A stretch of DNA of 64,000 nt, from IMG/VR virus record IMGVR_UViG_3300002494_000025, positions 1 to 64,000 of that record, one strand, 5' to 3'. This document shows, one piece after another, positions 22,485-63,910 of this stretch (position 1 is the stretch's first letter; each line of letters begins with the position of its first letter). The translations under genes were made by a program, and so were the position numbers. The notes beneath the pieces were generated by a model. The model saw only the letters and a list, made by a program, of their open reading frames with translations. It ran no database searches and was not told where the DNA came from. Origin of the DNA: a virus.

Positions 22485-25400
22485 ATGTTTGCAATTACTG
22501 ATGTAAGCAATGACAACCTCAAGTCCGTCTATCTTGCAGACAAGGCCTTCAAAGTAGAGATGAAATACAAAGATGGCGCTTGGAAAGACATAACCAGCTA
22601 TGTAGAGGCAATAGAAATTTTCGAACAGCTCACGTACGACGGGAACAGCCCGATGAACAAAGTCGGCATCAGCCTGAGCAACATCAATGGGGAGTTCTCA
22701 CCCGCAAAGGTGGGGGCTCCTTTCAATGAGCCTGTTGTTACAGGCTCTTCACGCACATTCTTGACAACCAAATTCCCAATTCGAATCAGCGTAACAGCCA
22801 ATAGCACGACATATACGATTTTTAGAGGCTATGCGCACACAGTTAAGGACGAAGGTTTGAAAGCGGCAATAGAAGCTTACGACATTCTCTATTACCTTGC
22901 ACGCAAAAGGTACAAGAAAGCCCTGAGCTTTGCCAATAAGACGGCGAAAGAAATTGTGCAAACAATTTGGAATGATGTTAAAGGCAAGATAGAAAGTGAT
23001 TTCGGCACCGTCATCGCACTGACTTTCATTCCGGACACACCAACCAGCAAGGCACTAATAAACACCGATGCAAAAACTTATCTTGATGCCCTAAACAAGA
23101 TAGTTTCCGGCACTGGCGGTTATTTCAACTACAGAGCTCTCACCAATGAGCTGATTTTTGTATTCATGGGGGATGCAAGCTACGCAGAACCTTCCACCAC
23201 AAATGCTGTATCTTTTGCAACTACAAATACAATAAACAAGTTTAATTTAGAGCAGCCGGTGGATGTTACAAACTCTGTGACTGTCAGCGTAGATACCTAT
23301 GTTGACAAATACAATCCACCGCAAGCAGTTGACGATTGGTGGTACAAGTCCTTTGTCGACAAAGATGGCAAATTTGCACCAAACAACGGGATAATGCTAC
23401 CTGCAGGCTCTGTATCAAGTACCGATATTGATTTTGGGAGGGTTGGTTACGACCCAGAACAGCAGCTTGTACTGACGGTGTTTACATACTCTGTGGAAAC
23501 AAAAAACGATGGTGGCAAGATATATATAGCTGGTGGAAAGAAAATTGTCGCCATCGATTTTGGCAGTAACTTTTCAACTCCTGTTCCGTTTAATGTCAGT
23601 TTGGGCGATTGGGGGATGATAAAGGTACTGGATTACCAAATCAAAGCGCAAGGCGTCTGGTTAAAGATACAAAACAACACAGGGCTTAATCTTTCCATTG
23701 CTGAAGTAAGAATGCGTGTGAAGCCGTTGCTTGAAAGTGGCAAGAATACTGCGGAGTACAAGGTTAACGATCCAGACAATGAAATTTTCGTGGAACAAAG
23801 CATCGATGCAATATTTATAGAGCAAGGCGCAATGCAAAAGACAGCACAAGCTGTTCTGAGGCTTAGAGGCGCGCGAATCACCGGCGAGGTAGAGCTTTCC
23901 CAATTTGCCCCATTCCTAACAGTTGGCGGTGTGGTTAAGGTAACGCTACATGACACAAACTTTAACTCAACCGATGTGCTATTGACCGAAGTGCAGCACG
24001 CAATAAAGAAAGGGCTGTGCACTACAACCTTCCGGTTCGCTCATGTATTCTCACTTGCCACTACTGTCGCAAACGATTTGACCAGACCTGTGATGCCTGA
24101 AGCTTCCGGTGGAGCAAATATTGTAGGCAGCTTGTTGCCGCCAAGTACATTCGATGTCGACAACGAAAATCGGTACCTAAAAATCAGCATACCAAGAGTG
24201 AAAGAAGGCAACGGCAAAGAAAGCATTGCCAGATACTTTTTCGGCATCGACTGGGTTGAGACAGCTTCCTCTACTTTGTCCAAGCTCTATACATTTCTTC
24301 CACAGCCAGGCTATACATTCACAAGAAACAGTGTGGCATACTTACCAGCAGGTCCCTTGGTGGATGCAGGCAAGCCAAGACTTATAAAAAGCAAAACAAT
24401 ATCTATCGATGGCCCTACGACAAACTTAATAGAGCAGTTTGAGCCTGGGGCGAGTCAAGATTGGAGTATGTGGAACCATTGGAATAATGGAGCATACTGG
24501 TATTCCACCACTCAATACGACGATCCAGTTTGGGGCAAGGTTTTTTATGGTAGAGCTAAACGTGATGCGTGGGGCAATACATATATTTACAACTATTCAT
24601 CAAACATACCTGTTAATGCAGGTGTAACATATATTCTTAGTTTTTACATCAAAACGAACACGGACCGCACACAGTCATTTCTGGCCTACCTTACCCCAGA
24701 TTATAGTAACACTGTCGTTGCAACTGCCACACGAACATACAATCTCAGAGCAAATGAATGGATAAAAGTTGAACTACCACTTACACCCAACGTATCTTCC
24801 AACATACAATATGGTGTTCGATTTACAAATGTCCCAGACGGTCAAGAGTTCTGGATTGCATATCCACAAATTGTAGAAGACAAATACCCAGGTCAAGATT
24901 GGAGTAAATGGTCACATTGGGGTAATACATTGTATTGGAACACCAACATACAGTACGACGATCCAGTTTTTGGAAAAGTATTTAAGGGTGTTGCAGGTAA
25001 TGAATACAATAAATATTTGTATGATTATTATCCGTATACGTTTGTACCTGGCGCCATATATACAATGAGTCAGTAGGGTGTAACAAACTTGATAGACCAA
25101 TGGGAACCTGGGGCAAGTCAGGATTGGAGTAAATGGGACCATTGGAATCAGACAACATACTGGTACTCCACAACACAATACGACGATCCGGTTTGGGGGA
25201 AAGTTTTTTATGGTAGAGCCAGACGTGATGTGAATGGTCACACATATATTTATAACTATTTACCAACAGTAACTATTAATGCAGGAACCACATATATAGT
25301 TAGTTTTTATGTTAAAACGAACACAGATCTTGTACAACCGTTTAGGGTTTACTTTACCAGTGTTCATACTTATAATTCCGTTAACGTTCAAGTAACACGA

Positions 25401-26717
25401 ACATACAATCTCAGAGCAAACGAATGGACGAGAGTTGAACTGTTATTTACACCTTCTCAAACATATTCCAATCAAAAATATGGTATTGAATTTGTAAACG
25501 TCCCGGACGGTCAAGAATTCTGGATTGCATATCCACAAATTGTAGAAAATCAATATCCAACTCAAAACTAGAGTGTACTGGCACAATATACAATGGGTAT
25601 TTGGTTACGTGGTGATACACAATGGACTGGAAATGTACGATTTTACGTTAATAATGCATCTACTAACCAAGCTTTACCAAATGGTGATCAAATTAAAACA
25701 ATTACCATCGATACCAATTGGAAATATTTTACGTGGACAGTAACACCTACTATAACACAAGTAACAACCGGTGGTTTGGGTATAGAATTTCAAAATCTAC
25801 CAGGGGGTTACACACTTTATGCATAGTTACCAAAATTTGAATAGAATACAACATAGACGGAATTTTTACCACTTCCAGTCTATGTACAAAAATCCGATTA
25901 TCCATTTCCAATTTTTAACCTAAATAATCAGTTTGACTTAAGATAGAATCAAGATTGGACAATCACCTTTGAATATATACCCTTTAACTCCGATACACAA
26001 ACATTGTTATCGAACCCAAAAACATTCACACTGTTTAGTTTGGGAACCCTTAATCCAGCAAATATAAAAAATATAAAAGAATATAATTCTGATGCAATGG
26101 ATTTCGTAAAAAGTTTATAGTTTTATGTGTCTCAATTGTTGGTAACATCTAATAATCTATTCGTACCATATAATATTAATATAGATAATCTATTAGTTAC
26201 AAATACACAAATTACTCTCACTTTAATGAGTCAATTTCAACACTATTCTGGTGAAAACGTTATTGTCACATCTACCTCACCAGTGACTATATAGTTAAAT
26301 GACTTCCTATTCAAAAAACACTTGGTTATCGTTACATATTCTAACACCACAAAAACCTTAACAACTATTGTAATACTATCAAACAATCAGATCTTACAAA
26401 CAAACATTCAAATTAAATCAACTGTAGATGATGTTATGTGGACATTTAGATATTTATCTAATATGAACTATACCGACGGAGATTTAATACTTGGTGGTGT
26501 TATTGATTCTAAACAACTAATTAGTAGTTATAAATTATAGAGTTTTGTATTTAGACCAATTACTATATAGAATGCATTATACAAGAATCTTACATTAGTG
26601 AAAAATTATTATACGAATCCAACAAATCTCAATACAAATGTATTTACAAGTATTACACTGGGAAAAGATTTACAAAGACGAAATTCAAACGGCTTTTATA
26701 ACGTATTAATTTTATAA
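22485..26717 (+). CDS. Tail/receptor-binding protein spanning the segment junction; 1410 aa if TAG is read as sense (10 in-frame TAGs, all from 25074 on)
   Basis: Track ORFs 22485, 25089, 25593 and 26322 share one frame, are separated only by TAG, and the first TAA is at 26715. Repeated QDWSxWxHW...QYDDPVWGKVF modules; YA*LPKFE*NTT*TEF resembles the E.G..AT.F ending of carbohydrate-binding-like modules. Confidence 0.7.
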
Positions 26718-26734
26718 TAAGGGGGTTTATATAA

Positions 26735-27946
26735 ATGATTACCAAATCAACATCAAATATTGAAAACTTCCTTTCCCAAAAAGAAATAAAAGATCTATTA
26801 ACAAAAATTGTTAACATTGAACAACAACTAAATCAAATAACTAACTCTTAGTTTACTATAAATGGAACCTTAACATAGTCTGGATTAGTTGTTACGGGTA
26901 CTGCCCAATTTCCTGTCAATTCAATAAATGGTAGTTAGATTCTCGATAATACAATATCAACATAGAAACTTACTGATGGTTAGATTACAACATAGAAACT
27001 TGCAGCTGGTTAGGTTACTGCTTCTAGAATTGGTAACTATCAAGTCACATCGGATAAGATTTAGGATCAATCAATCCATTCATGGCATATTGATAGTAAT
27101 TAGATCCAAACATGGCATATCAATAATAATTAGATTACATCAGATAAGATATAGCAACTAACTGGTGATTTAGTTTTCTCAGAAACTGTTTCTGGAAAAG
27201 GTATTCATTGGAACAATAAAAATAATCCGGGTACTGATTATTAGTTCATTAAATATTATTAGGATGTAAGTGAATATTCATCATCATATGATATATCAAG
27301 TGGTTCTAATAATAACGGGACACTAATAATAGGTGTTGAAAAAGATCTTAATAGTACATCCGGAGAACAAGTTATCATACGGACTGGTTCACGACTAATA
27401 ATTGATTAGAATGCCGGTAATTAGACAACACAAGAACCAATCAACATTGTAGAATTTTGGAAAGAGGGTACACAAATGGCTAAGATTGATATAAACGGTG
27501 CTATATATGGTTCTAAAGTGTACAATGCAGTTTGGAATGACCTTGCAGAACTTCGTGATTAGGAAACAACAATAGAACCTGGTTATGTATAGTTTATGAA
27601 TGAACAAACTGGTAAGTTAACAAAAAAGTATCACAAATATGCAGTTGGTATTGTGTCAGATACATATGGTATTATATTAGGATTAGATTCCAAATCAAAG
27701 AAAATCAAAAAAGGACAAGTACCAATATAGATATCAGGACGTGTCTTATAGCACTTCTCTGGTAAACTAAAAGTTGGGGATTAGGTTTGTTAGTAGAAGG
27801 ATGGAACTGTTCGAAAAATGAAATGGTGGGAAAAAATACTCTTCCCAGAAAGATTAATAGGTATCGTTGATGAAATACCCATGTATGAAACTTGGGGTGA
27901 AAATAACGTAAAAGTTAATGGTCGTATATGGATTAAAGTTAAATAA
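26735..27946 (+). CDS. Tail fibre protein, recoded (403 aa, ~22 TAG)
   Basis: Continuous frame with only TAG stops; ST*KLTDG*ITT*KLAAG*VT matches DGAITTAKLA fibre repeats; C-terminal VYNAVWNDLAE...VPI*ISGRVL*...GD*VC**KDG...NGRIWIKVK fibre domain. Confidence 0.85.
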
Positions 27947-28042
27947 CACTATAAACTTGTATCTGTATATGATGTGATTTACTGAAACTTACAATAGCAG
28001 AGTATATAAAACAATTACATTTTATAGGGGAGGAGATTGATT

Positions 28043-28705
28043 ATGACGAATGTTTGTCAACAAGAATCCATGGATAAAAGAACACAGGATATTAATGATA
28101 TTATGTATGTTACAAATGAATAGTTACAATTCTTCCAAGATATGAGTTTTAATCCGAATTTCTTGAATCACATGAGTGGTATACCATTAAGAACCATTAC
28201 TGATTTTATACAGATAGAAAAAAATCGTATAATCGATATCATCAATGGTAAGGTTTCAAGTGATTTCAAATTCACAAACCAGAGTTTAAATGTATCATGG
28301 TTTAATAATACATTATTGGGATTTCTTGAACGACTGAAAAATTTTGTATATTATAACAAAACGAATGATAAACAAAAATCACAAATTAGATTGTTATTAC
28401 ATTTTCTATATAATTGGACACAATTACTTGATGATAAGACATTGAGTGGGGAGAAACAAAAACTACAAAATATGATTAACCAAATAACTGAAATAATTGA
28501 TAATTTTTACAGTTTTGTGGAAATAATTTACCTTATGAGGGAATAGGGAGAGAATTTAAAGAAGTGGAATTCCTTCCGTCCGGCAGGATTGGATATTGCA
28601 CCACATATGTTAGATATACTTTATCAAAAACTTGAGAATGGTGAACAACCAGACCTGTTATTACAACAAAAATCAGAAGAAATGTTAAAACAAACAGAAC
28701 AATGA
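28043..28705 (+). CDS. Hypothetical helical protein, recoded (2 TAG)
   Basis: RBS GGGGAGGAG, ATG 28043, TAGs at 28121 and 28544, TGA at 28703. Confidence 0.7.
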
Positions 28706-28751
28706 TACAATCATATACTCCAAATTGTCAACATAGAAGGATGTGATAATA

Positions 28752-30236
28752 ATGTCAAATGTAATAAAACAGTCTGTAACGAAGTCAAGAAATATTGATA
28801 GTTTGAAATTTGTATAGATTGAACACGAAAGTAGTTAGGTTTGTAACCTATAGTGTAAGTATTGTTATATTCCCAAACTTTCATCATAGACAAAAACAAA
28901 TCAATTGATCATTGAGTCAATCAAAAATGGAACATTCGTTGATTATCTAAAAACAATATATGATAAAGATAAACTTGAGTCGTACTCATTATGGGGTACA
29001 GAACCAACAATATTAATACCAGTGTTTATTAAATATAACTTTTTTGAAACACTACTCAACGAGTTTCCCAAACTACACACATTTTCATTATCTACAAATT
29101 TAATTAGAAATATTCATACACTAATCACATTTCTAGAACATGTTGATGAATTGTAGGTTAAGTTAAATAGACACATTAATATTGGTATACAATTGAGTTT
29201 AGATGGTATTAAGGAAATTAATGATAAAAATCGTATTTTGATTACCGGTGATGAAAACCATGAGATTGGTTCTTTTGATTTAATACTTGAAACTCTGCAA
29301 AAATTATCGGAATATTATAAAACACATGAATTCAAAAATATCCGAATATCACACAACTATAAACCAACAATTGATGGTGAAGACATTAAATGGTTATTAT
29401 CAACTCCAGAAAAATTACTTGAAACACATAAATTGTTTGAGTATATTACATCGTTGTTTTTAGATGTTAATAAGAATGTTTCAATTCAGACAGGAACATC
29501 ACTCACATTAGCAGTTCCTGGAAGTTATACACCTGAAGATGGTGTGAATTTTTAGAAACTAATACAGATGTTACACGATGAAGTTGTTCCATATACACAA
29601 TCTCATAATAGTACATTTGTATTTGTAGTACCATATGTACATGATCTTGTACAATTACTTAGTAACACACTTGTTAATATTGATACCCCACGAACAAGAA
29701 ACAATTCAGCACTCTCTTGTTCTTAGGGTGACACAATGATTGGACTCTCTCCAGATGGTCAAATAAGTATCTGTCATTCCACATTTTTCTTCTCAAATCC
29801 AGAGTATCTCAAAATCTTCCTTGACACACCATAGTATCAATTAAAACAACGAGACTTTATAAAACAATATTAGATACTGACACCCAACATTAATAGTCCT
29901 AATTATGAGTTTGAAGAATAGAGATTATTGTATGTAATACGTAGTTATCACGATTACTTACGTATGAGAAAAGATACAATATAGACACAACTATTATTTA
30001 CTGCCAAGTATGGTAATTCAAATGTTGACAAACTCCTTCTTGAAGATAAAACATATTTACAAATTTAGTAGTTGTTTTTAACATCAAGATTTGCATGTCC
30101 ATTTAATTCAATAGCACTAACAGGTACACTACATACTCAACCACAATCAATAATTAATATATGGTAGTATGGATAGTTTAGAAAAATCTTCAAATATGCA
30201 TTGGATGAAATGAAAACAATTGTAAGAAGGGGTTGA
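28752..30236 (+). CDS. Radical SAM enzyme with twitch/SPASM-like region, recoded (494 aa)
   Basis: CNL*CKYCY (CxxxCxxC), LWGTEP, QLSLDG, CS*GDTMIGLSPDGQISICH; only TAG interrupts the frame, ends TGA. Confidence 0.88.
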
Positions 30237-30241
30237 TATAT

Positions 30242-31837
30242 GTGATTGTGGAAGTCCAAATTACAGATACAAGTGATGAATATAAACAGTCAAGTAAACA
30301 AATAATCAGTAACTATTTAAACGATACATATTTTAAGTAGTGGAGATTAATATACAAACTCAGAAAAGAACACCCTGAATTTTCAAGAATGGAATTAGAA
30401 AAATTACTACCAAATCAAGTAGTTGTTCAAAGTGCACTTGAACTAAATTTTGGTACAAACTGTTCTACAACATGTACGTACTGTTACTTGGATAGATTTA
30501 GTCGAAAAAGTGGTAAATATGATGAAACCAAATTGTATCCATTTAGTTATACACAATATGAAGAAAATTTACGAAAGTTTTTAAAGTTCTTAGAAATTAA
30601 CAAAATGACACCAATATCAATTGACCTGTTTGGTGGAGACACGATATTTAATAAATATGGTTTACTCACACTTGATATATTGTATGAACACTATTCTAAA
30701 CTCCCAATAGAGTACAAACCATTTGAAATTGTAATTCCAACAAATGGTACATGGATTAGTTCAGATAGTTTAACCGAAAAATAGATATCATATATTGAAA
30801 AATTCCGTAACATTGGAATTGGTTTGTTTTATTCATTGTCATTTGATGGATTGTTAGAATTACATAACAGACCAAGTTTAATTGAACATGTACTACAACG
30901 TGATAAAAAATCAGAAGAATATGTTGACAAAATGTTTCGATTATAGAAACAATATCATATGGGATTCCATCCAATGGTTTACTCTAACAAGATTGAATAT
31001 TGGATGGATAACTTTATCTGGTTCCAAAAAATGTTTTACAAGTATGGTATTAACCCATTTAGTTTGTATCTATTGGAAGTACGTAATGTTGAATGGTTAC
31101 CACGTCAATAGGTTGAGTTGGGAACATTTGTCAGATTTCTAACAATATTTGCACATAAAGTGTTTGGGTATGTGGGAAATACAATTGTTGTGGATGAAAA
31201 TGATATGAAACAAAGAGAACGATTTCAACAATAGTGGAATATTTTGAATAGTCCATTTACAAAAATATATCGTGGTGTTGGATGTTCATTACAAACAACA
31301 TTACAACTATCCGTATAGGAATTAACAGTATCACCATGTCATAGAAACAACTATAAAAATCAAGTCGGTTTCAAATTCATAATCAGTGATAACAATTACT
31401 CACTTGATATTGAACCATATAATTTTGAATATTATATGTTACTTAAAACATACAATGTAACGAACCAACCATATTGTCAAACATGTATACTCCGAAATAC
31501 TTGTAGTGGACTTTGTCCTGCATCACAGTATGAGAACTTTGCAGAACCAACCGTACCAATACCAACCACCTGTATGTAGGAATATTTTAAAAATATTGGT
31601 ATCATATACACATTATCGGAACTTGGATTTATACCACAACTTAACAATAATTATTCAATGGATTTAATCATGAAATTTATTCAAGAAAATCCTAAATTTG
31701 TAAAGTTGTTAAAATCAAAGGAAGATGTTATTCACCAAAAAATACAACAATTTAAAGAATTAACAAGTATTCAAAATGTTGATAGTATACCAATATTTAC
31801 GGATTATGAACGTAAAATTTTTTTCAAGGAGGTATGA
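30242..31837 (+). CDS. Radical SAM/SPASM enzyme, recoded (531 aa)
   Basis: CSTTCTYCY, LFGGD, PTNG, SLSFDG, GC...PCHR, CQTCILRNTCSGLCP..C SPASM cysteines; GTG start, ends TGA. Confidence 0.88.
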
Positions 31838-31844
31838 TATTTTT

Positions 31845-32972
31845 ATGATGTTACAGATAGATATTAACTTACTTCAACAACACAATTTTGATGTTAAAAA
31901 GATCTTATCTAATATAGATAAAAACTCACCAACGTTTATATTCATTGGTCTTAGTTATGGTGGTGGTATTGAAATTTCAACCAAAAGATATATAAAAATT
32001 ATGAGTTCTGTATTGGATCGATTTTATCATAGTTACAACCTTATACACATTTTTGAACAAGGTTTGTCTGAACAAACTGTTTATGATCTTTATAAACAAC
32101 TGTTAACATATAACATTAAATTAATATTCATCAATGAAGTTGGTTTAGACAATAGATTTTTGAAAATACTCAGGTTAATACCAGATTACAAACTTGTACC
32201 AATATATTATCACTATCACTCAACAAGTAGTAATTTGTTTAAATCGGTGAATTTTCAAGACTTAATAAGACCATTTGTGGAAAATTTTAATGTTAAGTTT
32301 ACAACACCGGTAATGGCAACATATCAACTATGTTTGGAGAATCAATTTTATGATTGTACGTATGTACCATTTCCAATAGATCCAGATAATGTTAACAAAC
32401 AACTTGTACCAACACATGAAAGATTAATCGATTTTTATATTCAGAAATCAGTTCAACCACATACACTTAAGTTATTATTACAATATATCTGTGACAATGA
32501 GAAAACATAGATAATACGATATTTAAAAGATATAAGGTCTGATAACACAAAACATATACTTGAAGAAGTTACTCAAATTGTTGAATAGTACAAAAATAGT
32601 AACATTATTTACAAACCACATGATTCTTTGATTGATAACATTGACTATTATTATAGTATATCTAAATTTTATTACACACACCCACAATCAGAATTATCAT
32701 CAATTGCAACGTTGGATTAGATGGTAAATGGTTGTGTCCCAATCATACACAATCTTAATACACATAACTATACCGATTATTCTGATTATAAAAAATATTC
32801 ATTATATTAGATATATCAATCACCAGTTGAAACTGATGAACATTTTATTACAACTACTGTTCCTGAAAAACTTAATTAGTGTGATGATGATTTTAGAAAA
32901 CAAATGAGGGATTTTGTAATCGATAACTATTATTATACAGTTTTGAAATTCTTTGAAACTATTTGTGTGTAA
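31845..32972 (+). CDS. GT-B fold glycosyltransferase (GT4-like), recoded
   Basis: N-terminal GGGIE, YYHYH, PFPID; C-terminal HPQSELSSIATLD*MVNGCVPII matches the PS..E.F....EAM..G.PVI motif. Confidence 0.75.
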
Positions 32973-33038
32973 TTGTTTGATTTAATCTTAATTTAAAAAT
33001 AACCACTTTAGTTGTAAGAATATGGTGGTGATACAACA

Positions 33039-33512
33039 ATGGGTTTCTCATGGCAACAATCTATAAGTAGAAATACTGTTATCACATAGTAGCAGATAAA
33101 TGAAATAGAAACAAATGTACAAACTTTATTAAATAGAGTTTGTTATATACATTATGTTAGTCAAAATACAAATGATTATTTAACAAACCAAGCAGTTCCA
33201 CACTATACAGGACATCAACAAACTCATTATGTAAATCATTACAACCCCAATCATACTGGGTTCCATTCAGGTTATGACAACTCAAATCAGACCTCACACT
33301 TGACATCATATGTTACGGGTGATAAAAGTACATACATGAGTACACATGTTATTACAAATAATACAACTCAAAATAGTACACATAATAGTGGAACATATAG
33401 TGGATATAATTCAACATATTATATAGGTGATGATAGTTCATATGATACAAGTAAACAATTAACACATAATTATACAGTTTATAATCAACATTTTATGAGT
33501 GTTATAAACTGA
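33039..33512 (+). CDS. His/Tyr/Asn/Ser/Thr-rich repeat protein 1, recoded
   Basis: MGFSWQQSISRNTVIT**QINEIETNVQTLLNRVC followed by ~4-residue periodic H/Y/N-x-S/T-G/S repeats; ends TGA. Confidence 0.8.
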
Positions 33513-33556
33513 CTGGTAACATTTATTAACCATCTACTAAAGTGGGTGAGAATTGT

Positions 33557-34393: not shown

Positions 34394-34423
34394 TACAATA
34401 TAAACTATAAAAATAATAAAAAC

Positions 34424-34451
34424 AGAGAGTGGTTAGTTCCACCCTCTTTTC
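34424..34451. terminator. Bidirectional hairpin terminator
   Basis: AGAGAGTGG..CCACCCTCT between convergent genes. Confidence 0.6.
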
Positions 34452-34468
34452 ATATTTACATAACAAAT

Positions 34469-36928: not shown

Positions 36929-36945
36929 CTATAGAGGTGACATGA

Positions 36946-53743: not shown

Positions 53744-54313
53744 TTATTCACATTCTACTGGTGGATAATACAGTGTTGTATTGTTGTACTTTTTTAAAAA
53801 TTCTAATAATCCATTAACAGTGGTGTCATCATATATTACATTGGATAATGTATACATATCCACCCCCGTATGATAACCGGGGATGTGGTCCAAAAAGTTT
53901 CTAACTATTTCTATTAAACCTGGAAATTCCTTTAATTCTGATATTTCAAGGAGTTTGGATCTTGCTTCTTCTGTTTTTAATGTAACTTTTTCTAATGTTG
54001 TCAAGTCCCCGGCCCGAAGTTTATTTGGAGAATCAACATCAGGATCGGGGTTATCAGGACTAGTCACTGAAACTTTAGAAATTTTAAGAGTACTGCTACT
54101 ATGCCAATACCAATAATCGAATAGTATATATATTCCGGGGAATATTTTGTATAAATAGTACCCCTCGACCCGATTACTACCTGGGGTTCTGTTGACCGGT
54201 CGTATAAACTTCTTATTTTTAATTGAAAAAAACACCCCCATTAAACCTCGTTGTTTTGTTGTGCCATAATAATGACATCCTACAATATCAATTGTATTTA
54301 CACTTATACCCAT
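53744..54313 (-). CDS. Hypothetical protein (paralog of the next gene)
   Basis: RBS AGGAGG; shares FS..NKKF.RP...G.Y.Y...PG.YI.F.Y.W with 54356-54646. Confidence 0.65.
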   Translation of the reverse strand: MGISVNTIDIVGCHYYGTTKQRGLMGVFFSIKNKKFIRPVNRTPGSNRVEGYYLYKIFPGIYILFDYWYWHSSSTLKISKVSVTSPDNPDPDVDSPNKLRAGDLTTLEKVTLKTEEARSKLLEISELKEFPGLIEIVRNFLDHIPGYHTGVDMYTLSNVIYDDTTVNGLLEFLKKYNNTTLYYPPVECE

Positions 54314-54355
54314 AATACCTACCTCCTTTTTAAAATGATATTTGTTTTCGTACAG

Positions 54356-54646
54356 TTATATCATATCACATATATTATTTTTTGTCAATACTTTATTTTT
54401 ATTTTTTTTTAGATCATCATTTACATACCATTCATAACTAAAAAAGATATATTTTCCTGGTAAAACACCACTATACATATAAAAACCCTCATTAACACTA
54501 CCTTCCTTGGATATTGGTTTTACAAACTTCTTGTCTATAGGAGAAAACAATACTATCTTCAACCTTACACTATCAGGAGAATTAAAATACTTTCCACCCT
54601 TAAAAGTAAACAAACTTGTTGTATTCTCACCATTAACCTCAACCAT
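54356..54646 (-). CDS. Hypothetical protein (shorter paralog)
   Basis: Shares the motif of 53744-54313. Confidence 0.55.
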   Translation of the reverse strand: MVEVNGENTTSLFTFKGGKYFNSPDSVRLKIVLFSPIDKKFVKPISKEGSVNEGFYMYSGVLPGKYIFFSYEWYVNDDLKKNKNKVLTKNNICDMI

Positions 54647-54831
54647 AATATCATCCCTTAAAATACTTTAGAAAACCGACAATTTCTGTTCTACCACTAA
54701 TTGTTAATGTCACAAAATATCACCACCACTATAATTTAAGTTTTGAACTTCCTAACTTTTTTTTTATTTTTTTTAGTATGAAATAAAAAAGAGGTCCGGG
54801 GAAATCCCCAGACCGAAAATTTATTTGTTAA

Positions 54832-55335
54832 TCATAACTCATTTCTAATTATATAATGGATCATTATATCGTAGAAAACTGCTAATTTGGTGATTTCTTT
54901 CTCATAAAATCTTTTTACCCAATGTGGTAATCTATTTACAAATATTGGTTCTGTTAGTTTTGTTACTATAGATCTAATCAAATCCATCATATCTTTGTCC
55001 AATGTTGTTATAATGTCAACATACTTATAGTAATCTTTAAATATATAAAACAATATTGGTGTCACACGATACGTATCATTTTCTACTTCAACAATGGGAA
55101 GAGGAAATTTTTTATTAAAATACCTTAAATATTTATTATTATTATCAACAAAGTCTGGTGTTATATATAACACTGTCACGAAATCACTGGTTATGTCAAT
55201 AATCACCCCGTTAACAACAATTACCTTACAGTCATTAACATAACACATTCTGATTACGTCATTAATTTTAAAATTAACATTGTCATCATTATTCATTCTT
55301 ATGAATGTCATTTTACTTACCCTCCCTTTAATCAT
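54832..55335 (-). CDS. Hypothetical protein
   Basis: ORF with RBS GGGAGG before MTFIRM. Confidence 0.55.
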   Translation of the reverse strand: MIKGRVSKMTFIRMNNDDNVNFKINDVIRMCYVNDCKVIVVNGVIIDITSDFVTVLYITPDFVDNNNKYLRYFNKKFPLPIVEVENDTYRVTPILFYIFKDYYKYVDIITTLDKDMMDLIRSIVTKLTEPIFVNRLPHWVKRFYEKEITKLAVFYDIMIHYIIRNEL

Positions 55336-55545
55336 CTCTCATATATAAGAACTGTATACATTCAAAAATTTGACAGGGGAATATTGTTAAATGTGAATGA
55401 ATGTTATATGTTATTTTTGTTCAACACCTGTTTATAACCTGTTTATACTTGTCGAAGTTATCCGGTGTTTGTCAAGTCTGTCGACGATGTCGAGTAAAAA
55501 TAAAAAGTGGGTTACATAAAGTAACCTCTCAGATCAATCATCGGT

Positions 55546-56220
55546 TTAGATAGATTTTTGTTTTTGACTATATAGTTTTAGCAATTGTGAAATACCGTCT
55601 TTTAGTCTGTATGTGTCTATCACAAAAATTATAAATTTCTCACCAACTGTAATTACAATTTCACAATATTTATGTAACAGTAAATTATTGATAAATCGTT
55701 CATCCATAATTATATATGCACTATTGTACAATTCTGGATAAAAAACTGCATACATATCAGTATACGGTTTTACATTACTTTTAATATTTTTATTATTTTC
55801 TTGTTCTTGTTGTAACGTATCAAAAAATCTTACACTTGTCAACCTAACTGCGTATACTTCTTCGTTAAATTGTTTTATGACCTGAACGTTTGGGGAATCA
55901 ACTGTTAGTCCGATTGGTTCGACAAATTGAAATGCAAAAAACATCTTTTTGTGAGGTAAACTGATATTAATCATTAATTTGACAAATTGCTGATCATCAA
56001 TTTTACCATTGATTATGAAATCTGTTGTACTATAAAGAAAAGTATCAAAGAGTGGATATGTATCATAACGATTTTCTGTATACATAACCCAATAACCAAA
56101 ACTTTCAATTCTTGTTACACTATATACCGACTGTGAAAACAGAATTACAAACAATACAAACACAAACATGTTTAGATATATGTATGACCTTTTAATTTGA
56201 ATACTCATTATTAAACCCAC
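55546..56220 (-). CDS. Putative secreted/membrane protein
   Basis: N-terminal hydrophobic signal-like segment. Confidence 0.55.
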   Translation of the reverse strand: MGLIMSIQIKRSYIYLNMFVFVLFVILFSQSVYSVTRIESFGYWVMYTENRYDTYPLFDTFLYSTTDFIINGKIDDQQFVKLMINISLPHKKMFFAFQFVEPIGLTVDSPNVQVIKQFNEEVYAVRLTSVRFFDTLQQEQENNKNIKSNVKPYTDMYAVFYPELYNSAYIIMDERFINNLLLHKYCEIVITVGEKFIIFVIDTYRLKDGISQLLKLYSQKQKSI

Positions 56221-56238
56221 CTCCCAAAAATTAAATAG

Positions 56239-56553
56239 TTAATTATTCTGTACCTCAAGTTTAATTGTTACCCAACCGAACATTTTTTTGATGTTATTAT
56301 ACTCAGGATGTGGTTCAAATCGTAATACAGGTTTAACTGGTTTTATTGTGTAGATTTCATTTAATGGAATTATTTTCCACTCATTACTATCTTGTACACG
56401 AACCAACAACACTGTATTTTTATTTTTTATTAAATTTGTTCCAACTAGATATGGTTCACAGACAATATCGTTTATTTGTATACATTCTTTATTTACTATG
56501 TTATTTTCCAATTGTTTGATTAACTCCCTTTGTGTATATACACTCATACTCAC
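56239..56553 (-). CDS. Hypothetical, degenerate WYL-like protein
   Basis: CEPYLVG....N.VLL...WK.I.L.EI....P...F.P.PEYN parallels the WYL protein at 59937-60293. Confidence 0.5.
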   Translation of the reverse strand: MSMSVYTQRELIKQLENNIVNKECIQINDIVCEPYLVGTNLIKNKNTVLLVRVQDSNEWKIIPLNEIYTIKPVKPVLRFEPHPEYNNIKKMFGWVTIKLEVQNN

Positions 56554-56571
56554 ACCATCTCCTCATATAGT

Positions 56572-57741
56572 TTAATTCAATACTTTTAGTAATTCACGTG
56601 CAAGAAAACGGATAACTGGGACTGAAACTGAATTACCTGCTTGTTTGTACAGTTTACTTGTGGGATATGGTTGATTTCTATAAGTGGTGGGTAGTTTATA
56701 ACCATTATCAACAGGGAAACCTTGGATCTTAAACGCTTCTTTTGGTGTTATCATCCGGATTCCGTCTGGAACTCGTACAATAGTCATGTTAGTTGGATGT
56801 GTAGATGATGCGACTAATGCAGGACACAGTCCAGATTTATTTTTTCGTACATAGGAATTCCTTCTAATTTGGTAGAACCAATACATTTCATCAACTTCCT
56901 CTTCAAGATTGATTCTATTCTTTGGTCTTTTATCTGGTGGTAATTTCTCATACTCTTCCTTTGATACAAACAGATATGGATACTTTTCTTTTGTATAATA
57001 ATATTCAGGGTTATCTTTGATATTGATGTTAAGATCTAGTACATTCATACGTTCTTCCATTAATTGTTGAGGTGTTTTCCTGATTTTATATTTTTTAAGA
57101 TTGTTACCATCAAACAATGTAAATTTATCAACATCTTCTTTATTCAGAAATGCAAGAATATAGATTCTTGATCTGTTTTGTGGTAGTTCTGTATAATCTT
57201 TTGTGTTTATAACAGCATCTTTGACGGTATATCCCAAATCTTCAAGTGTAGTTCTAATAACTTTGTATGTATTTCCCCCATCATGTCGTTTTAAATGACT
57301 AACATTTTCCAGGAATAAAACACGTGGTTTTTTACCGAACACCTTTTCATGTTCAATTACAACATCCACGATTCTCCAGAACATTTCCCCCCTTGGGTCT
57401 TCAAATCCAAGTTTCTTACCTGCCACTGAGAAAGGTTGACATGGAAATCCAGCAGTTAGGATGTCAACATGATGAGAAAACATATCGTTCTTCAACTTCT
57501 TGTAATAACGAATTAGTTTAATGTTTTTTGCTAATTCCGGTTTAAGTATTTTTACAATATCACCATGTAGAATTCTGTGGTTGAAATTAGTTTGTAACGT
57601 TACAACTGCATAATTATCTATTTCATTTGACCAAATGATCTCGTATTTTTTATTTTCAACATCCTGGGTGGCAAGTATGAACCCCATTTCTATTCCACCC
57701 ACACCTGCAAACAGACTACCAACATAAAATAACTTCTCCAT
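56572..57741 (-). CDS. DNA (cytosine-5) methyltransferase
   Basis: FAGVGG, GFPCQPFS, ENV, PQNRSR, R.ITPKE...QGFP, YKQAGNSV motifs. Confidence 0.95.
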   Translation of the reverse strand: MEKLFYVGSLFAGVGGIEMGFILATQDVENKKYEIIWSNEIDNYAVVTLQTNFNHRILHGDIVKILKPELAKNIKLIRYYKKLKNDMFSHHVDILTAGFPCQPFSVAGKKLGFEDPRGEMFWRIVDVVIEHEKVFGKKPRVLFLENVSHLKRHDGGNTYKVIRTTLEDLGYTVKDAVINTKDYTELPQNRSRIYILAFLNKEDVDKFTLFDGNNLKKYKIRKTPQQLMEERMNVLDLNINIKDNPEYYYTKEKYPYLFVSKEEYEKLPPDKRPKNRINLEEEVDEMYWFYQIRRNSYVRKNKSGLCPALVASSTHPTNMTIVRVPDGIRMITPKEAFKIQGFPVDNGYKLPTTYRNQPYPTSKLYKQAGNSVSVPVIRFLARELLKVLN

Positions 57742-57839
57742 TATCCACTACCCCCATAACCAATCTAATAATATGTTAGATTTTGTAATTAAAAAAACGG
57801 GTGTAATGTAAAAAACAACACCCGACATAAACATTAAAA

Positions 57840-59108
57840 TTATATCCGCATCGGTATTAACACATAAAAGTATGTAAGCTCACTATCAACTGGTGATATT
57901 TTGACTGGACTGACATTATCGACAAACTTAAACATACATTTACTTGTGTCTATATGTTTTATGATTTCGCTTAACAGTTTGGGGTTAAAACTAATAATCA
58001 AGTCACTTCCCTGTTTATCCACAATATCGAGTTCATCAATAACTTCACCAAAATCGGAACTTCTTACTATAAATCTTGTAATGTTATTAGTAATTTCCAG
58101 TACAAGTTTTTCCCCACTTTTGTTTGACAAGACTGATATATGTTTCAATGTCTCTTTCAATTTCTCTGTGTCGAACACTATCATAGTACTTGTGTTAATG
58201 TTAACAACTCGTGAATAGTCTGGAAATTTATCTTCAACAGTCCTGGTGATAATTTTTATATCGCCGGTATCAAACATCACAACTGAGGTATTGTATGATG
58301 TAGACACATTTATTTCTGGTTCTGTGGTTGTAGTTACTAATTTGTATATCTCTTTCATCGTTTTAAGATCTACAAGGAATTGAATAGACTGATTAATTGA
58401 TGTTTGAATTCTATCCGATGTTAGTCCTAGTCTATAACCATCAGTACCCACCAAAGTTAACTCATTATCTTTATTGACTAACCACAATACTGAATTCAAA
58501 TTCCTTAAATTGTAATCTGTGGATGTACAAAACAGTACCTTATCAATTAGTTCTTTTAATATGGATGTTTCTACTGTAAAAACATTATCAGTTTCACTTA
58601 CAAGAGTCTCAATATCTGGGAACTTATTCTCTTCAGAGTATGTTGTAAGTGTATATTTGGATTTTCCACTCTTGATAATTAGTTTACCATCATCTGTATG
58701 ATACATAAATGTAAGAACGTCATCTTTATCAAAACTTTTAACAATATCAAACAATAGATCTGATCTTACAAGAAACTTAGTTTCGTTACCACTACCACCA
58801 CTACCACTGAACTCGTATTCACTAACATTGATACTTGTTACAATTGTAGTTTGAAGATTTGTTGATACTAACTTAACCACTGGTTCCTTATCCATAAAAC
58901 CATTTTCAACTTTGAACAATATACATTGAAGTGTTGGATCAACTGTTCTAGAATTGGTAATATCATCAAGTATTTCAATTTTGTTGATAATATGATATTG
59001 TTTTACATTAAATGACACCACATTCTTTTTCAACATACTTTCTTCATTTAACCTCCTCTCAAAATTTTGTATGTTATTAACAATATACACAAGTTGTACA
59101 TTTACCAT
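57840..59108 (-). CDS. dnaN: DNA polymerase III beta sliding clamp
   Basis: P.L..IL, STNL, KFPD, GTDGYRL, KFPDY.RV, ISFNPK.L, YVLIPMRI; start uncertain. Confidence 0.9.
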   Translation of the reverse strand: MVNVQLVYIVNNIQNFERRLNEESMLKKNVVSFNVKQYHIINKIEILDDITNSRTVDPTLQCILFKVENGFMDKEPVVKLVSTNLQTTIVTSINVSEYEFSGSGGSGNETKFLVRSDLLFDIVKSFDKDDVLTFMYHTDDGKLIIKSGKSKYTLTTYSEENKFPDIETLVSETDNVFTVETSILKELIDKVLFCTSTDYNLRNLNSVLWLVNKDNELTLVGTDGYRLGLTSDRIQTSINQSIQFLVDLKTMKEIYKLVTTTTEPEINVSTSYNTSVVMFDTGDIKIITRTVEDKFPDYSRVVNINTSTMIVFDTEKLKETLKHISVLSNKSGEKLVLEITNNITRFIVRSSDFGEVIDELDIVDKQGSDLIISFNPKLLSEIIKHIDTSKCMFKFVDNVSPVKISPVDSELTYFYVLIPMRI

Positions 59109-59119
59109 CTTTAATACTT

Positions 59120-59899
59120 TTAATACCCTCTTTTTTGTCTATCAAAATTTTCGTGATTTTTCGTCATATAATGAATTATCAAATCTTCCAAACTTCTTTT
59201 TCCATCAAAATTAATAAACAACTCTGATAATATCTCATGTAATTCATTTGTAACTTTCAAAAACTCGGAATAATCAATATTATAATCCTGTTCTTTATAT
59301 GTTTTCCAATATTTCCATGGGAATAAATTTAAAAGTTTGGACAATTTAACAAATCCTTCAAACACTAGATCATTATATGTTGTAACGTTTTTGTATGGTG
59401 TGTCGAATGTAAAATTAAATGTTGACATCATATCGTTAACAACCTTTTCCACAATAACCTTTTGGTATGTTTTATCACTTACATAATTATCAATCTGATT
59501 ATTTAATTTATCGTTAATTATATTAACTATCAGTAACAATTGTAACAAGAAGTGATAAATATCAATTACTTCATAACGACATTCAACTTTGTACTCACTT
59601 AGTCTAACAATATGTTCGGCATTTGGAAGTTCATCAATCCAATTTTTAATTTCAACAAACTCATCAAACATTGCAAGTATTGTCTTTTCAGCCAGATCTT
59701 TGAATGTTAATCTAGATTGTTCCCAAGTTGGAAGTATTTTTCTTTTTATGATATCAATCATTAGAGAGTTCTGTAAATCAACCATATAGTACAAAATTGG
59801 TTTGTTAGATTGTTTTTTAAATTCCTCAATTTGTTGTTTCATTTGTGGATAGTATTGTATATGTATCTCAAACTGTGACTGTCGGTGTTGTCCCATCAT
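59120..59899 (-). CDS. Dimeric all-alpha dUTPase
   Basis: DEFVE, EVIDIYHF, PWKYWK, KNHENFDRQKRGY. Confidence 0.85.
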   Translation of the reverse strand: MMGQHRQSQFEIHIQYYPQMKQQIEEFKKQSNKPILYYMVDLQNSLMIDIIKRKILPTWEQSRLTFKDLAEKTILAMFDEFVEIKNWIDELPNAEHIVRLSEYKVECRYEVIDIYHFLLQLLLIVNIINDKLNNQIDNYVSDKTYQKVIVEKVVNDMMSTFNFTFDTPYKNVTTYNDLVFEGFVKLSKLLNLFPWKYWKTYKEQDYNIDYSEFLKVTNELHEILSELFINFDGKRSLEDLIIHYMTKNHENFDRQKRGY

Positions 59900-59936
59900 T
59901 TATTACCCCCTTTTATCTTAATGACATTCTATTCTG

Positions 59937-60293
59937 TTATTGTCTCTTGACATTTACGATGATTCTGGTCATTGCTTTATCATCTGGATTGTACTCTGGT
60001 CGTTGTGTTGGATCAAATTTTACCAAGATACCCTCAGACTGTAATGGTTCAACGTACTCAATCAACTCAACGTTAAACAACTTCCACCCTTCGGAATTTC
60101 CTGAAGTACTATAACCACTTTGTTGAAATGCACGTAATAATGTGTTACCAAGTCGGTTTACACCCAATACATATGGTTCCACAATACGTTCCCGTGGTTC
60201 ACCACGATATTTCAGTTTTACTACAGTTCTTTTTCTAATACTTTTCACCAGTACATTAATAATCTCATTTACACTCATCACCATACTTATCAA
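59937..60293 (-). CDS. WYL-domain protein
   Basis: VKLKY...RERIVEPYVLG...LRAFQ...GWKLF.V..I. Confidence 0.8.
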   Translation of the reverse strand: MISMVMSVNEIINVLVKSIRKRTVVKLKYRGEPRERIVEPYVLGVNRLGNTLLRAFQQSGYSTSGNSEGWKLFNVELIEYVEPLQSEGILVKFDPTQRPEYNPDDKAMTRIIVNVKRQ

Positions 60294-60343
60294 CCTCCTT
60301 CTTTTAACTTGTGTCTAATAATAATATATTGGATTTTGCAATT

Positions 60344-62053
60344 TTAACTGTCTAAACTCTCAAATAGTTGTTTGTTAAAATTTTCAATTTCATAAATCAT
60401 TAATTCATCAATATTTCTAAGTTCATGTTCATCGAATCTATCAATACCGAACAACATATCAAACACCTCGATTTTGGGATTGAGTATTTTGTTTAATACG
60501 TACTTATCAAATAACGATAATAAATTTATCACAATCCCGTCATTAACTTTCTTGTGACGTAGTCTATATATTCTTCCAACTCGTTGATTCATTTTAGCAG
60601 GATTGTATAGTTGGTCGTAATTAATCAGTACATCCAAATCAAGATTTACACCGGTTGATAACACATCTGTTGCAAGGATTATATACTGTTTTAAATTTTT
60701 TAATTGAGAACGATTGATTTGTTTTTTACTTGAAAACACAAATATGTTTTTATTTTTGAATATTTCATTCTTGGTAAGTAGTTCATACAGATGGTTAATG
60801 ACAGTTTCATAAAATGAGAAAATTATAACTTTTTTGTTACTGTATGATTGAAGAATGTCAAATATTTGTTTATCTTTGGGAGACATATAATTATCCCAGT
60901 CTACAGTTTTAACATACTTAGACAGTTCTGGTAGATATTTAGACTTATGTACAGTTTGTTTAATGATGACTGGATTATTTAATATCTCACGTAAATAGAT
61001 GAACCGTACAATGTTTTTAACAAGTGGGTGTGATATATTATTTGTTTCTTGTTTGAGGATTTGTATCATCTGTTTCTGAAGATTTTCCATACCAACATCA
61101 ACAGAAAAAGTATGAATATTTTGAAGGTATAATTTATCGATAACAACAACATCTGTTTTCCTCCTTCTTATATAAACTTTTGTTTGTTGTAATATAGATT
61201 TTAATTCATCCAAATTTTGATATTCGTACTTAGTGAACTTACCATTTTGAATTGGTGTTACATACCGTTCTATAAGTTTATTGGTCCAAATATCCATACC
61301 GTAAAACATAACTTGTAACAAATTAAAGAGTTCAATAACATGATTTTCAATTGGAGTGGCAGTGGATACAATAGTGAATGTCTCCGGTAAGAACTGGTTA
61401 ATAAACTTTATTACTTGTGTAACTTGGGTGTTGGAATTTTTTATTTTTTGTGCTTCATCTAATATTAACAATGTATATGAACTGTTATTTTTAATTTTGT
61501 TGAGGAAATCTACAATTAAACTAACCTGTAATTTGTCAGTTGTTCTAAACAAATCATAGTGTGTTACAATTAGATTAAATTTATTCAATTCATTTGTTGT
61601 ATAAAGTGATTTTTTATCAGTTAACAAAACAATGTTGAGGTACTTATGTAAATTATATTTTTTAATTTCTTCAAGAACATCAAATTTAACATTTTTAAGT
61701 GTAATATAGATTGTAGTAAATGGTTTGTTTATCGACTTGAAATAATCAGTTAACAATAATGTTGAAGACAGTGTTGACAGTGTCTTACCTAACCCAGTAT
61801 CGTCTGCCAATATAACGCCATGTTTTTTGAACAATATACCATTGAATATCTCATTTAAAAACTGTAAGAATTCAACTTGATGTTGTTGTAGTGTAATTTT
61901 GTACTTTGACTGTATCTTAATCTTATCAATATCAAGTCTTATGTTGGTGAACGTACTAATATATCTATTGTCACTTGGTGATATGTTATTTAAAAACAAG
62001 TATAAGTTGGTACTATATTCTTTTATGTGTTCAAACATAAATTCACCATCCAC
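60344..62053 (-). CDS. SNF2-family helicase
   Basis: ILADDTGLGKT, LDEAQKIKN, TATPIEN, GVNL, YNPA...QRVGRIYR. Confidence 0.92.
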   Translation of the reverse strand: MDGEFMFEHIKEYSTNLYLFLNNISPSDNRYISTFTNIRLDIDKIKIQSKYKITLQQHQVEFLQFLNEIFNGILFKKHGVILADDTGLGKTLSTLSSTLLLTDYFKSINKPFTTIYITLKNVKFDVLEEIKKYNLHKYLNIVLLTDKKSLYTTNELNKFNLIVTHYDLFRTTDKLQVSLIVDFLNKIKNNSSYTLLILDEAQKIKNSNTQVTQVIKFINQFLPETFTIVSTATPIENHVIELFNLLQVMFYGMDIWTNKLIERYVTPIQNGKFTKYEYQNLDELKSILQQTKVYIRRRKTDVVVIDKLYLQNIHTFSVDVGMENLQKQMIQILKQETNNISHPLVKNIVRFIYLREILNNPVIIKQTVHKSKYLPELSKYVKTVDWDNYMSPKDKQIFDILQSYSNKKVIIFSFYETVINHLYELLTKNEIFKNKNIFVFSSKKQINRSQLKNLKQYIILATDVLSTGVNLDLDVLINYDQLYNPAKMNQRVGRIYRLRHKKVNDGIVINLLSLFDKYVLNKILNPKIEVFDMLFGIDRFDEHELRNIDELMIYEIENFNKQLFESLDS

Positions 62054-62954: not shown

Positions 62955-63353
62955 ATGGTTATGTATACAAAAGAAATAACATTACCTATTCCAAGTCCAA
63001 CACGTGATGACCAAGTTGAATATGTAGATGTAGATAATATAAAGTTAGAAACTATTTATAATTTCGAAACACACGAATATGTTGCAATAGTTTGTAAAAT
63101 AAGAAAAAACAATACACATGAGAAACATCGAATATTTTATTTCAAAGTACCATATGAACGTGAATACGGATTTGCAAATTTAAGAAAAATTTTTGAAAAC
63201 ACTCAACTGGATTATGATTACAGTACGTATATTTCCAATCAACACAACAACATTGATTTAATGAACACAATCATAAATTTGTTCGAAACAATACAGAATG
63301 AAATCCAACAATCACAATCATCATTTCAAAATAATAAAACCGATGTAATGTAA
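62955..63353 (+). CDS. Hypothetical protein
   Basis: RBS GGGGGTGA; preceded by the shared upstream motif; ends TAA. Confidence 0.65.
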   Translation: MVMYTKEITLPIPSPTRDDQVEYVDVDNIKLETIYNFETHEYVAIVCKIRKNNTHEKHRIFYFKVPYEREYGFANLRKIFENTQLDYDYSTYISNQHNNIDLMNTIINLFETIQNEIQQSQSSFQNNKTDVM

Positions 63354-63382
63354 ATGTAAAACTTGGGAGGTGGGTGTAAATT

Positions 63383-63910
63383 ATGAGAAATGAAAGTAAT
63401 TTTAATGTTGACAACATGGAGTTCCCAAAAGTTTTAGAACACATCGAATGGCGTTTGGGTTCGATGGTTAGAATCAGACCATCAAAAGAAAAGGTTTTGT
63501 TCAGTTTTATGTTGAGAGACAAGAACAACAAAGATTACGATACGAATAGTAGAGTATTGTTTTCTACAAACATGTCTGAAACATATCAGATTATCAAGTA
63601 TCTCGATACACTCCTAAATACAGATACAGTTACACCATACACCCTAATCCATGTTCCAGATGGTCCAGATGGTACTAAAAATAATTAGGGAATAAAAAAG
63701 ATATTTACAATCATACCTAAACGTGATGAGAAGATGAAGTTACAAACGGTGTATATTTCTTTAATTGTAAACAACAATGGACATGAGATAAAATATATTA
63801 TCAGTTTTACTGATACAGGTGTGTTACGATATTTTGGATTTAAATTAAAATTAATGTACTATTGGTTAACAACAAACACACTAGTTGGATTCACCGAAAA
63901 CTGGATATGA
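63383..63910 (+). CDS. Hypothetical protein, one in-frame TAG (63686)
   Basis: Frame continues 73 codons past the TAG to TGA at 63908, just before the terminator hairpin AAACCCACC..GGTGGGTTT. Confidence 0.65.

Follow-up and report, generated by a model that had tools for sequence, protein, structure and literature searches.

TAG as a probable alanine codon in a GpC-depleted, T4-like phage from a hot-spring metagenome

The DNA considered here (the window, 64,000 nucleotides) is the initial 64 kb of a single virus record of 135,374 bp, IMGVR_UViG_3300002494_000025, which IMG/VR classes as a provirus, 76% complete. By GC content and the observed/expected ratio (o/e) of the dinucleotide GpC, the record is separable into three parts (Table 1). 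The middle part carries genes for a gp23-type capsid, T4-type terminase, sheath, prohead protease, PolB, DnaN, primase and C5 methyltransferase; the DNA from ~24.8 kb to ~130.9 kb, of hot-spring metagenome origin, belongs to a distant T4-like myovirus whose closest GenBank phage shows 31.5% identity. The subject of this report is the codon TAG, which in this phage appears to be read as alanine. Between positions 22485 and 63910, 20 long open reading frames (ORFs) contain 122 in-frame TAGs, 1-22 each; they are fused from code 11 fragments when TAG is written as X, and all of them end in TAA or TGA. An earlier inspection of the letters alone (the sequence-only reading) had described about 20 TAG-broken genes with such ends, a description that was reproduced here, and all eight spot-checked coordinates were TAG (25074, 53118, 53391, 53421, 28851, 38932, 40475 and 36949), the last belonging to the ATG-TAG gene start proposed at 36946.

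The use of TAG as a sense codon extends over the entire low-GC part, where 86 genes hold 374 in-frame TAGs and terminate with 60 TAA, 26 TGA and no TAG. When coding density is computed on ORFs of at least 100 amino acids (aa), the region 25572-44600 rises from 37% under code 11 to 88% with TAG as sense, in the comparison that the sequence-only reading had proposed, and the mean ORF lengthens from 167 to 311 aa; in the controls, sense TGA yields 42%, and sense TAA yields 68% without longer ORFs (161 aa). The low-GC part as a whole goes from 50% to 88%, and the high-GC flank gains no density from a sense TAG. The TAGs are also consistent between assemblies: 75 in-frame TAGs lie within 25518-36999 (depth ~330), none of the 29 sequence differences among contigs touches any of them, and contigs of the RNA library agree with the DNA contigs letter for letter; within the covered stretch this speaks against an artefact of assembly or editing.

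The encoded residue was approached by writing TAG as X and tallying the residues of standard-code homologues at the X columns. Pooled over the terminase, PhoH and fibre proteins (34 of 54 TAG columns, each covered by 50% or more of the homologues and scored with substitution frequencies that these alignments themselves supplied), the log-odds in nats were +14.4 for Ala, -1.5 for Ser, -8.6 for Val, -11.2 for Gly and -19.7 for Gln, which places Ala far above Gln, as had been predicted; Ala was also first in each of the three families on its own. Its frequency in homologues is 32.6% at TAG columns, compared with 5.5% overall and 49% at the phage's own GCN-encoded Ala columns. For the terminase, whose 22 TAGs were compared with 111 homologues of 29-33% identity, Ala leads at nine columns, where 58-107 of the 111 homologues have it, and Gln leads at none. 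In the C-terminal domain of the fibre (119 homologues) Ala is found in 108 of 119 at column 332 and 99 of 119 at column 339, and leads at columns 350 and 353, while the TAG columns of PhoH (147 homologues) hold A/S, G/A, G and T/A/S. Ala makes up half or more of the homologue residues at 38 columns; of these, 10 carry TAG in the phage (1.6 expected) and 7 carry GCN (odds ratio 11.3, Fisher p 8e-7). A NadR-like protein was unusable as a fourth family, as seven proteins matched it and five of these were in-clade, and when 53 recoded proteins were compared by tblastn with three T4-like loci, six found a match, too few for further families.

The sequence-only reading had predicted a CUA tRNA with G3:U70 elsewhere on the genome, and such a tRNA is present. 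ARAGORN reports three RNA genes for the whole contig, clustered, with the tRNA(CUA) in the middle. The tRNA(CUA) has G1-C72, G2-C71, G3.U70, G4-C69, A73, G20 and a short variable region, and its D arm is that of the neighbouring tRNA-Ala, i.e. of the Ala type; over the full alignment, 53 of 78 positions match the phage's own tRNA-Ala. Minor elements recognized by alanyl-tRNA synthetase (AlaRS) are A73, G2:C71 and G20. ARAGORN's own label for the gene, pyrrolysine tRNA, is based on the anticodon only, and a Lys-like signal is missing at TAG columns, where Lys has a frequency of 0.039 against a background of 0.068. Since tmRNA is likewise an AlaRS substrate, the row of tRNA-Ala, tRNA(CUA) and tmRNA would place three expected AlaRS substrates side by side. 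According to the accessible text of two papers (PMC6055181, PMC8583063), AlaRS picks its substrates by G3:U70 and does not contact the anticodon, so the host AlaRS should charge the tRNA(CUA) with Ala. No AlaRS gene was found on the contig, and the host enzyme is therefore assumed to perform this step.

The best GenBank phage matches to the suppressor tRNA come from T5-like Aeromonas phages, at 85.5% over all 76 nt, which makes the Aeromonas-phage suppressor closer to this tRNA(CUA) than the phage's own tRNA-Ala is. An amber suppressor tRNA is carried by the Shenzhenvirus phages Akh-2, AhSzq-1, AhSzw-1, TS3 and AhP_Mru1; it is labelled tRNA-TERM, tRNA-Pyl or tRNA-OTHER in the records, and is not mentioned in the Akh-2 paper. 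As in the present phage, the Akh-2 suppressor has G3:U70 and adjoins a tRNA-Ala(UGC) (L248:1501-1575; also L252:6910-6984), and coding density in the first 50 kb of Akh-2 goes from 57% to 78% with TAG as sense. In contrast to the present phage, Akh-2 has a GpC o/e of 1.09, GCN makes up 6.6% of its codons and TAG ~16% of its TAG+GCN codons, and the Aeromonas phages belong to an unrelated virus family with mesophilic hosts. The resemblance between the two suppressors may reflect either common ancestry or convergence. A first search pattern for CUA tRNAs gave no match in IMG/VR, and 1 of 125 CUA tRNAs (110 loci) had G3:U70, both being lower bounds because the fixed D-loop length of this pattern misses the Aeromonas type; a core tRNA pattern recovered one more IMG/VR contig, of the Aeromonas-phage type. 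The one G3:U70 case among the 125 CUA tRNAs, which also has A73, lies on an unrelated 2.8-kb metagenome contig (L233:2338-2413) with 38.5% GC and normal GpC.

Taken together, the alignments and the tRNA features indicate that TAG means alanine, to which we would assign a probability of roughly 0.88, and it is close to certain that TAG is a sense codon. A number of observations weigh against it or weaken points of the sequence-only reading. A residue other than Ala leads at 21 of the 34 pooled columns (G 6, V 4, S 3, T 2, others), and one TAG falls on the G of a nucleotidyltransferase motif, which we take to be (H/T)xGH, with two relatives having G there. The ribosome-binding sites claimed by the sequence-only reading are above chance but incomplete, as a Shine-Dalgarno-like tetramer precedes the start in 17 of 40 recoded genes and in 16 of 34 that are TAG-free, compared with 5% of random positions. 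Three genes have a TAG 0-11 codons upstream of their own TAA or TGA, and these TAGs may be leaky stops; the absence of TAG from the major capsid gene suggests that decoding may be costly or incomplete. The guess that the phage encodes an RF2 or an RF1 antagonist found no support on the contig, where PF00472 had no match and PF03462 matched only at E 0.011, in a coiled-coil ORF. TAG 25074, where the recoded region was proposed to begin, is indeed a TAG but sits in the junction between two elements and should not be counted as evidence. In addition, the early/late gene order discussed below is inferred from a promoter-like motif, and Akh-2, which has the same kind of tRNA and normal GpC, indicates that GpC avoidance is not needed for the code.

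The alternative that survives best, albeit an unlikely one, is that TAG encodes Ser or Gly, or an ambiguous mixture, or remains partly a stop. Ser is second in the log-odds, Gly is commonest at 6 of the 34 columns, and relatives have S, N and G also at TAG columns; the avoidance of TAG in the capsid gene and the failure to find an RF1 countermeasure would agree with it as well. However, the variable region of the tRNA(CUA) is short, not of the Ser type, and the usual Gly identity features are missing from this tRNA, which instead has the full Ala set; furthermore, Ala stands above Ser in all three families.

It is much less probable that TAG encodes Gln (code 15), the way pipelines already translate it. 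Gln is commonest at none of the 34 pooled TAG columns and has a frequency there of 0.024 against a background of 0.043, contrary to code 15, although at PhoH column 263 a Q occurs in 35 of the 147 homologues. The G1-C72, A73 and G3:U70 of the tRNA are not known as acceptor features of GlnRS. A further argument for Gln could be the Q seen at TAG positions in database proteins of this genome and its relatives, but every TAG appears as Q in a same-sample protein (P0271, 22 of 22) and likewise in the own-genome record of the NadR-like protein (P0391, 23 of 23), which means that the database 'Q' stands for TAG and is an annotation convention. Part of the literature also favours Gln: in the accessible text of Borges et al. 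(10.1101/2021.08.26.457843) phages are given TAG->Gln and TGA->Trp only. A 2026 jumbo-phage survey takes TAG as Gln in the part available, and UAG=Ala is not mentioned in the available part of the Codetta screen. According to the accessible portion of Seki et al. 2025 (10.1101/2025.10.30.685624), 28 of 29 phage tRNA(CUA) insert Gln in E. coli extract and one inserts Ala, which those authors call an unusual UAG-to-Ala reassignment of unclear biological relevance, with no recoded genome described. As for the view that the TAGs are real stops in decayed genes, sequencing or assembly errors, or sites of RNA editing or rare programmed read-through, it has practically no chance, because, even though the contig is composite at ~24.8 kb and its standard-code flank stops at TAG (9755, 13222), ~370 TAGs lie in one frame of long ORFs with family matches from end to end and no interrupting TAA or TGA, high-depth DNA and RNA-library contigs agree, and the cognate tRNA is present.

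Once the database 'Q' is taken as TAG, the relatives of this phage resemble it in their alanine usage. Nine related terminase clusters (37-87% identity) contain 0-1.8% Ala and 7.4-10.5% 'Q', compared with 4.5-6.5% Ala in distant homologues, and at the GCN-Ala columns of the present phage these nine relatives have 'Q' in 46 of 90 cells. The NadR-like protein has two relatives that lack Ala altogether, over 936 and 960 residues, and contain 6-7% 'Q'. We read this as a whole clade that probably shares the same code and is translated as code 15 by pipelines. Gene callers that switch to code 15 would thus write Gln where Ala is most likely, in the own record and in at least nine related terminase clusters, an error that amounts to ~2% wrong residues in each of the late proteins, with many of these residues at conserved positions. 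Within IMG/VR, no relative was found with the terminase protein, with an alignment, or with a DNA pattern that included two in-frame TAGs.

The low-GC part is strongly depleted of GpC (o/e 0.26 versus 1.28 in the flank). Every one of the 16 NGCN contexts is affected (0.11-0.64), TGCA the least (0.64); CpG is normal except where it overlaps GpC, and GT and AC are in excess. The depletion reaches all codon phases, with NGC forming 3-4% of NGY codons, compared with a C-ending share of 19-42% in other pairs, and G followed by C across codon borders at an o/e of 0.16. GCN codons number 376 (1.2% of codons) and TAG codons 374, so TAG supplies about half of all alanine codons. The share of GCN-encoded Ala among residues is 1.1% for the recoded genes, compared with 1.5% for those free of TAG. 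Because GpC is depleted in all contexts and codon phases, and GCN-Ala is low in TAG-free genes too, the pressure appears to act on the DNA, with alanine scarcity as a by-product. The DnaN sliding clamp has no Ala in 422 residues. A candidate cause of the purge is the phage's C5 methyltransferase (Pfam E 1e-67; among solved structures M.HhaI is closest, matched only in the catalytic half) combined with heat-driven decay of 5-methylcytosine (5mC), and restriction avoidance is another candidate. GpC avoidance explains the heavy use of TAG in this phage, not the origin of the code.

TAG is absent from the replication genes and frequent in structural genes, but the major capsid gene has none and the PhoH and radical SAM genes have many. 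The capsid gene (gp23-type, contig 110866-112305) differs from the other large structural genes, with 5.4% GCN-Ala and a GpC o/e of 0.68. A 20-nt promoter-like motif, TTGYAAA-N5-AYATATTA, is present in 11 copies on the contig, seven of which lie 4-75 nt upstream of TAG-free ORFs, PolB included, and two upstream of tRNA genes. Four copies, where none was expected, are found in the window (49985-50004, 60322-60341, 41008-41027 and 41297-41316), all on the minus strand. The tRNA-Ala(UGC) and the tRNA(CUA) are each located 21-27 nt downstream of a copy, inside a duplicated upstream segment.

Table 1. Parts of the contig, RNA genes and features of the window (positions from the first letter of the record; RNA genes lie beyond the window)
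Feature	Position	Strand	Details
Left part	1 to ~24.8 kb		GC 42%; GpC o/e 1.28
Middle part	~24.8 to 130.9 kb		GC 28%; GpC o/e 0.26
Right end	final 4.5 kb		GC and GpC o/e both climb back
tRNA-Ala(UGC)	contig 118483-118558		Rfam 73 bits
tRNA(CUA)	contig 118731-118806		ARAGORN cloverleaf; Rfam tRNA 67 bits
tmRNA, full-length, tag peptide ending LAA (ARAGORN)	contig 118813-119172		Rfam 204 bits
Junction zone	24800-25571	+	In-frame TAGs 25074 and 25569; CBM_4_9-like repeats
Low-GC 3' part of read-through ORF 22485-26717 (10 TAGs)	25572-26717	+	
Tail-fibre-like protein, 403 aa, 22 TAGs	26735-27946	+	119 homologues
ORF, 222 aa, 2 TAGs, no family found	28037-28705	+	
Radical SAM/SPASM-like, 503 aa, 16 TAGs	28725-30236	+	PF04055 E 1.4e-5, sub-cut-off; PDB 5wgg E 3.7e-5
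Second radical SAM-like ORF, 534 aa, 7 TAGs	30233-31837	+	PF04055 E 9.5e-4, sub-cut-off
ORF, 398 aa, 5 TAGs	31776-32972	+	No Pfam match at E<=0.01
Two repeat proteins rich in His/Tyr/Asn/Ser (157 aa, 2 TAGs; 283 aa, 6 TAGs)	33039-34393	+	
ORF, 575 aa, TAG-free, 0.7% Ala	34469-36196	-	
Six paralogous ORFs, 211-253 aa, TAGs 5/5/2/3/4/2	36293-40609	+	Paralogue alignment
ORF, 608 aa, 8 TAGs	41085-42911	+	
ORFs of 202 aa (7 TAGs) and 161 aa (1 TAG)	43384-44515	+	
TAG-free block: Mre11-like metallophosphatase 46051-47229, family-B DNA polymerase 47300-49948	44945-50965	-	Pfam
ORF, 126 aa, 4 TAGs	51974-52354	-	
PhoH-like ATPase, 345 aa, 10 TAGs	52635-53672	+	PF02562 E 8e-29
TAG-free block: C5 DNA methyltransferase 56572-57741, DnaN clamp 57840-59108, SNF2 helicase 60344-62053	53744-62053	-	Pfam
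ORF, 175 aa, 1 TAG	63383-63910	+	

With respect to the individual genes of the window, the PhoH identity proposed from the letters was upheld by Pfam (PF02562). The radical SAM assignment was recovered as PF04055 matches in two ORFs, both of which, with 25.7 and 19.8 bits, stay under the curated cut-off of 29.5. The motif CNLXCKYC, X marking the TAG, had been offered as a sign of Ala, but the X aligns with Arg in PDB 5wgg, so the motif is uninformative on this point. Three other family names did not hold in Pfam, there being no match at E<=0.01 for the suggested GT-B (31776-32972) and NlpC/P60 (43384-43992) proteins and no PIN domain. The region 28725-34393, where the radical SAM-like pair, the 398-aa ORF and the repeat proteins stand beside the fibre gene, may be a peptide-modification cluster. 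The sixth of the paralogues at 36293-40609 matches the T4-type gp19 tail tube (tblastn E 1e-5, cyanophage gp19).

The left part (1-24800) is an SPP1-like siphovirus module, comprising a terminase with T4-type N and C domains, an SPP1 portal, an SU10-type capsid and a tape-measure-sized ORF of 2447 aa (15132-22475); code 11 fits it well, and the module is fused in frame to the recoded phage. In a 300-nt profile, GpC depletion begins at ~24.8 kb, within repeated CBM_4_9-like modules that are 76-85% alike (24420-25571; Pfam CBM_4_9). Depth, taken from the contigs of one DNA run of the hot-spring metagenome, is 48 for 17000-24599 (one contig) and 328-342 from 25518 onward. Only small divergent contigs lie between 24599 and 25518, and no contig bridges 24599-24687, a gap that neither proves nor disproves the join. 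The depth step and the divergent contigs suggest that the left and middle parts are different replicons or a minority arrangement, and the junction may have arisen by misassembly, integration or recombination. Modules of the same kind, 76-85% identical, recur in inverted orientation at contig 129518-129980 (minus strand), within a recoded gene at a distance of 105 kb; where such copies lie in phage-type DNA, their GC stays higher, yet they are GpC-poor.

At the right end (130396-135374), NrdG, NrdD and a complete bacterial-type five-domain MutS are encoded and GpC climbs from 0.44 to 0.98, a rise over these genes that places the right border of the phage near 130.9-131.2 kb. A circular contig was considered and rejected: although the two terminal ORFs share a frame, the one on the right encodes an entire MutS, N-terminus included, and the one on the left an AAA_25 protein. 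No tyrosine integrase was found on the contig. In same-sample contigs, a 30-nt CRISPR repeat flanks a 37-nt stretch that matches the phage (24689-24725), and again near 33169; CRISPR repeats beside phage stretches suggest that some host in the sample carries spacers against this phage. The full repeat had no exact match among the genome contigs, the nearest full repeats differing at two positions, and its 18-nt core is widespread in thermophile lineages, so no host was pinned down; a MutS search in the protein Atlas yielded no taxon.

Among known systems, the code 15 phages (crAss-like, Lak, Garnet/Topaz; 10.1101/2021.08.26.457843, PMC9523058) are similar in that, according to the accessible text of these sources, they have their own tRNA(CUA) and a host presumed to follow the standard code. 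In-frame TAG clusters in their structural and lysis genes, and their replication and code-switch genes stay readable in the standard code, a distribution that the present phage may share in part. The present phage is unlike them in probably having Ala instead of Gln, an anticodon-blind synthetase and a TAG that replaces a vanishing codon box, and in that no phage RF2 was found. The tRNA(CUA)-151 of Seki et al. resembles the present tRNA, by description only, as a phage-derived amber suppressor with Ala inserted at UAG in cell-free reactions in the available portion of that study. In the mitochondria of Hydrodictyaceae/Neochloris green algae, a UAG stop-to-Ala change with an alanine-type tRNA(CUA) is established, as far as the accessible text of PMC6821328 goes; those mitochondria differ in being organelles with codon disappearance and an altered release factor, whereas here a virus acts in a standard-code cell. 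The statement in the sequence-only reading that UAG=Ala is described in green-algal mitochondria and not in phages was thus correct for the mitochondria and too strict for phages, given the one phage tRNA(CUA) that inserts Ala in vitro (10.1101/2025.10.30.685624). No paper on a phage genome that reads TAG as Ala was found in a search that left most subscription journals outside its range.

In the favoured reading, the phage tRNA(CUA), otherwise an alanine tRNA, would be loaded with Ala by the host AlaRS. Genes readable by a naive host, namely the replication genes, the methyltransferase and the tRNAs, would be expressed first, to be followed, once the suppressor is present, by terminase, sheath, tube paralogues, fibres, prohead protease, PhoH, radical SAM and lysis enzymes. 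Avoidance of GpC at all three codon phases appears to have removed most of the GCN alanine box, and TAG, being a GpC-free alanine codon, would for this reason be heavily used. A wider scenario, which we put forward tentatively and at slightly less than even odds, is that a clade of thermophile phages moved alanine off GCN: the GpC purge would have made GCN unusable, after which an alanine-type amber suppressor, of a family shared with Aeromonas phages, would have made TAG the main Ala codon, and apparently the sole one in large proteins of some relatives, with the switch carried by a tRNA-Ala/tRNA-Ala(CUA)/tmRNA cassette.

The finding is a new amino-acid assignment within the known stop-codon recoding of phages, and TAG=Ala would be a third phage assignment beside TAG->Gln and TGA->Trp. 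As the synthetase ignores the anticodon, a single anticodon change would suffice, which makes the mechanism different in kind. The related tRNA in cultivable Aeromonas phages makes charging and decoding testable at the bench. The extreme GpC purge together with the near-loss of GCN links dinucleotide pressure with codon reassignment and, if the wider scenario is true, this would be an instance of a genetic code remodelled by the avoidance of a dinucleotide.

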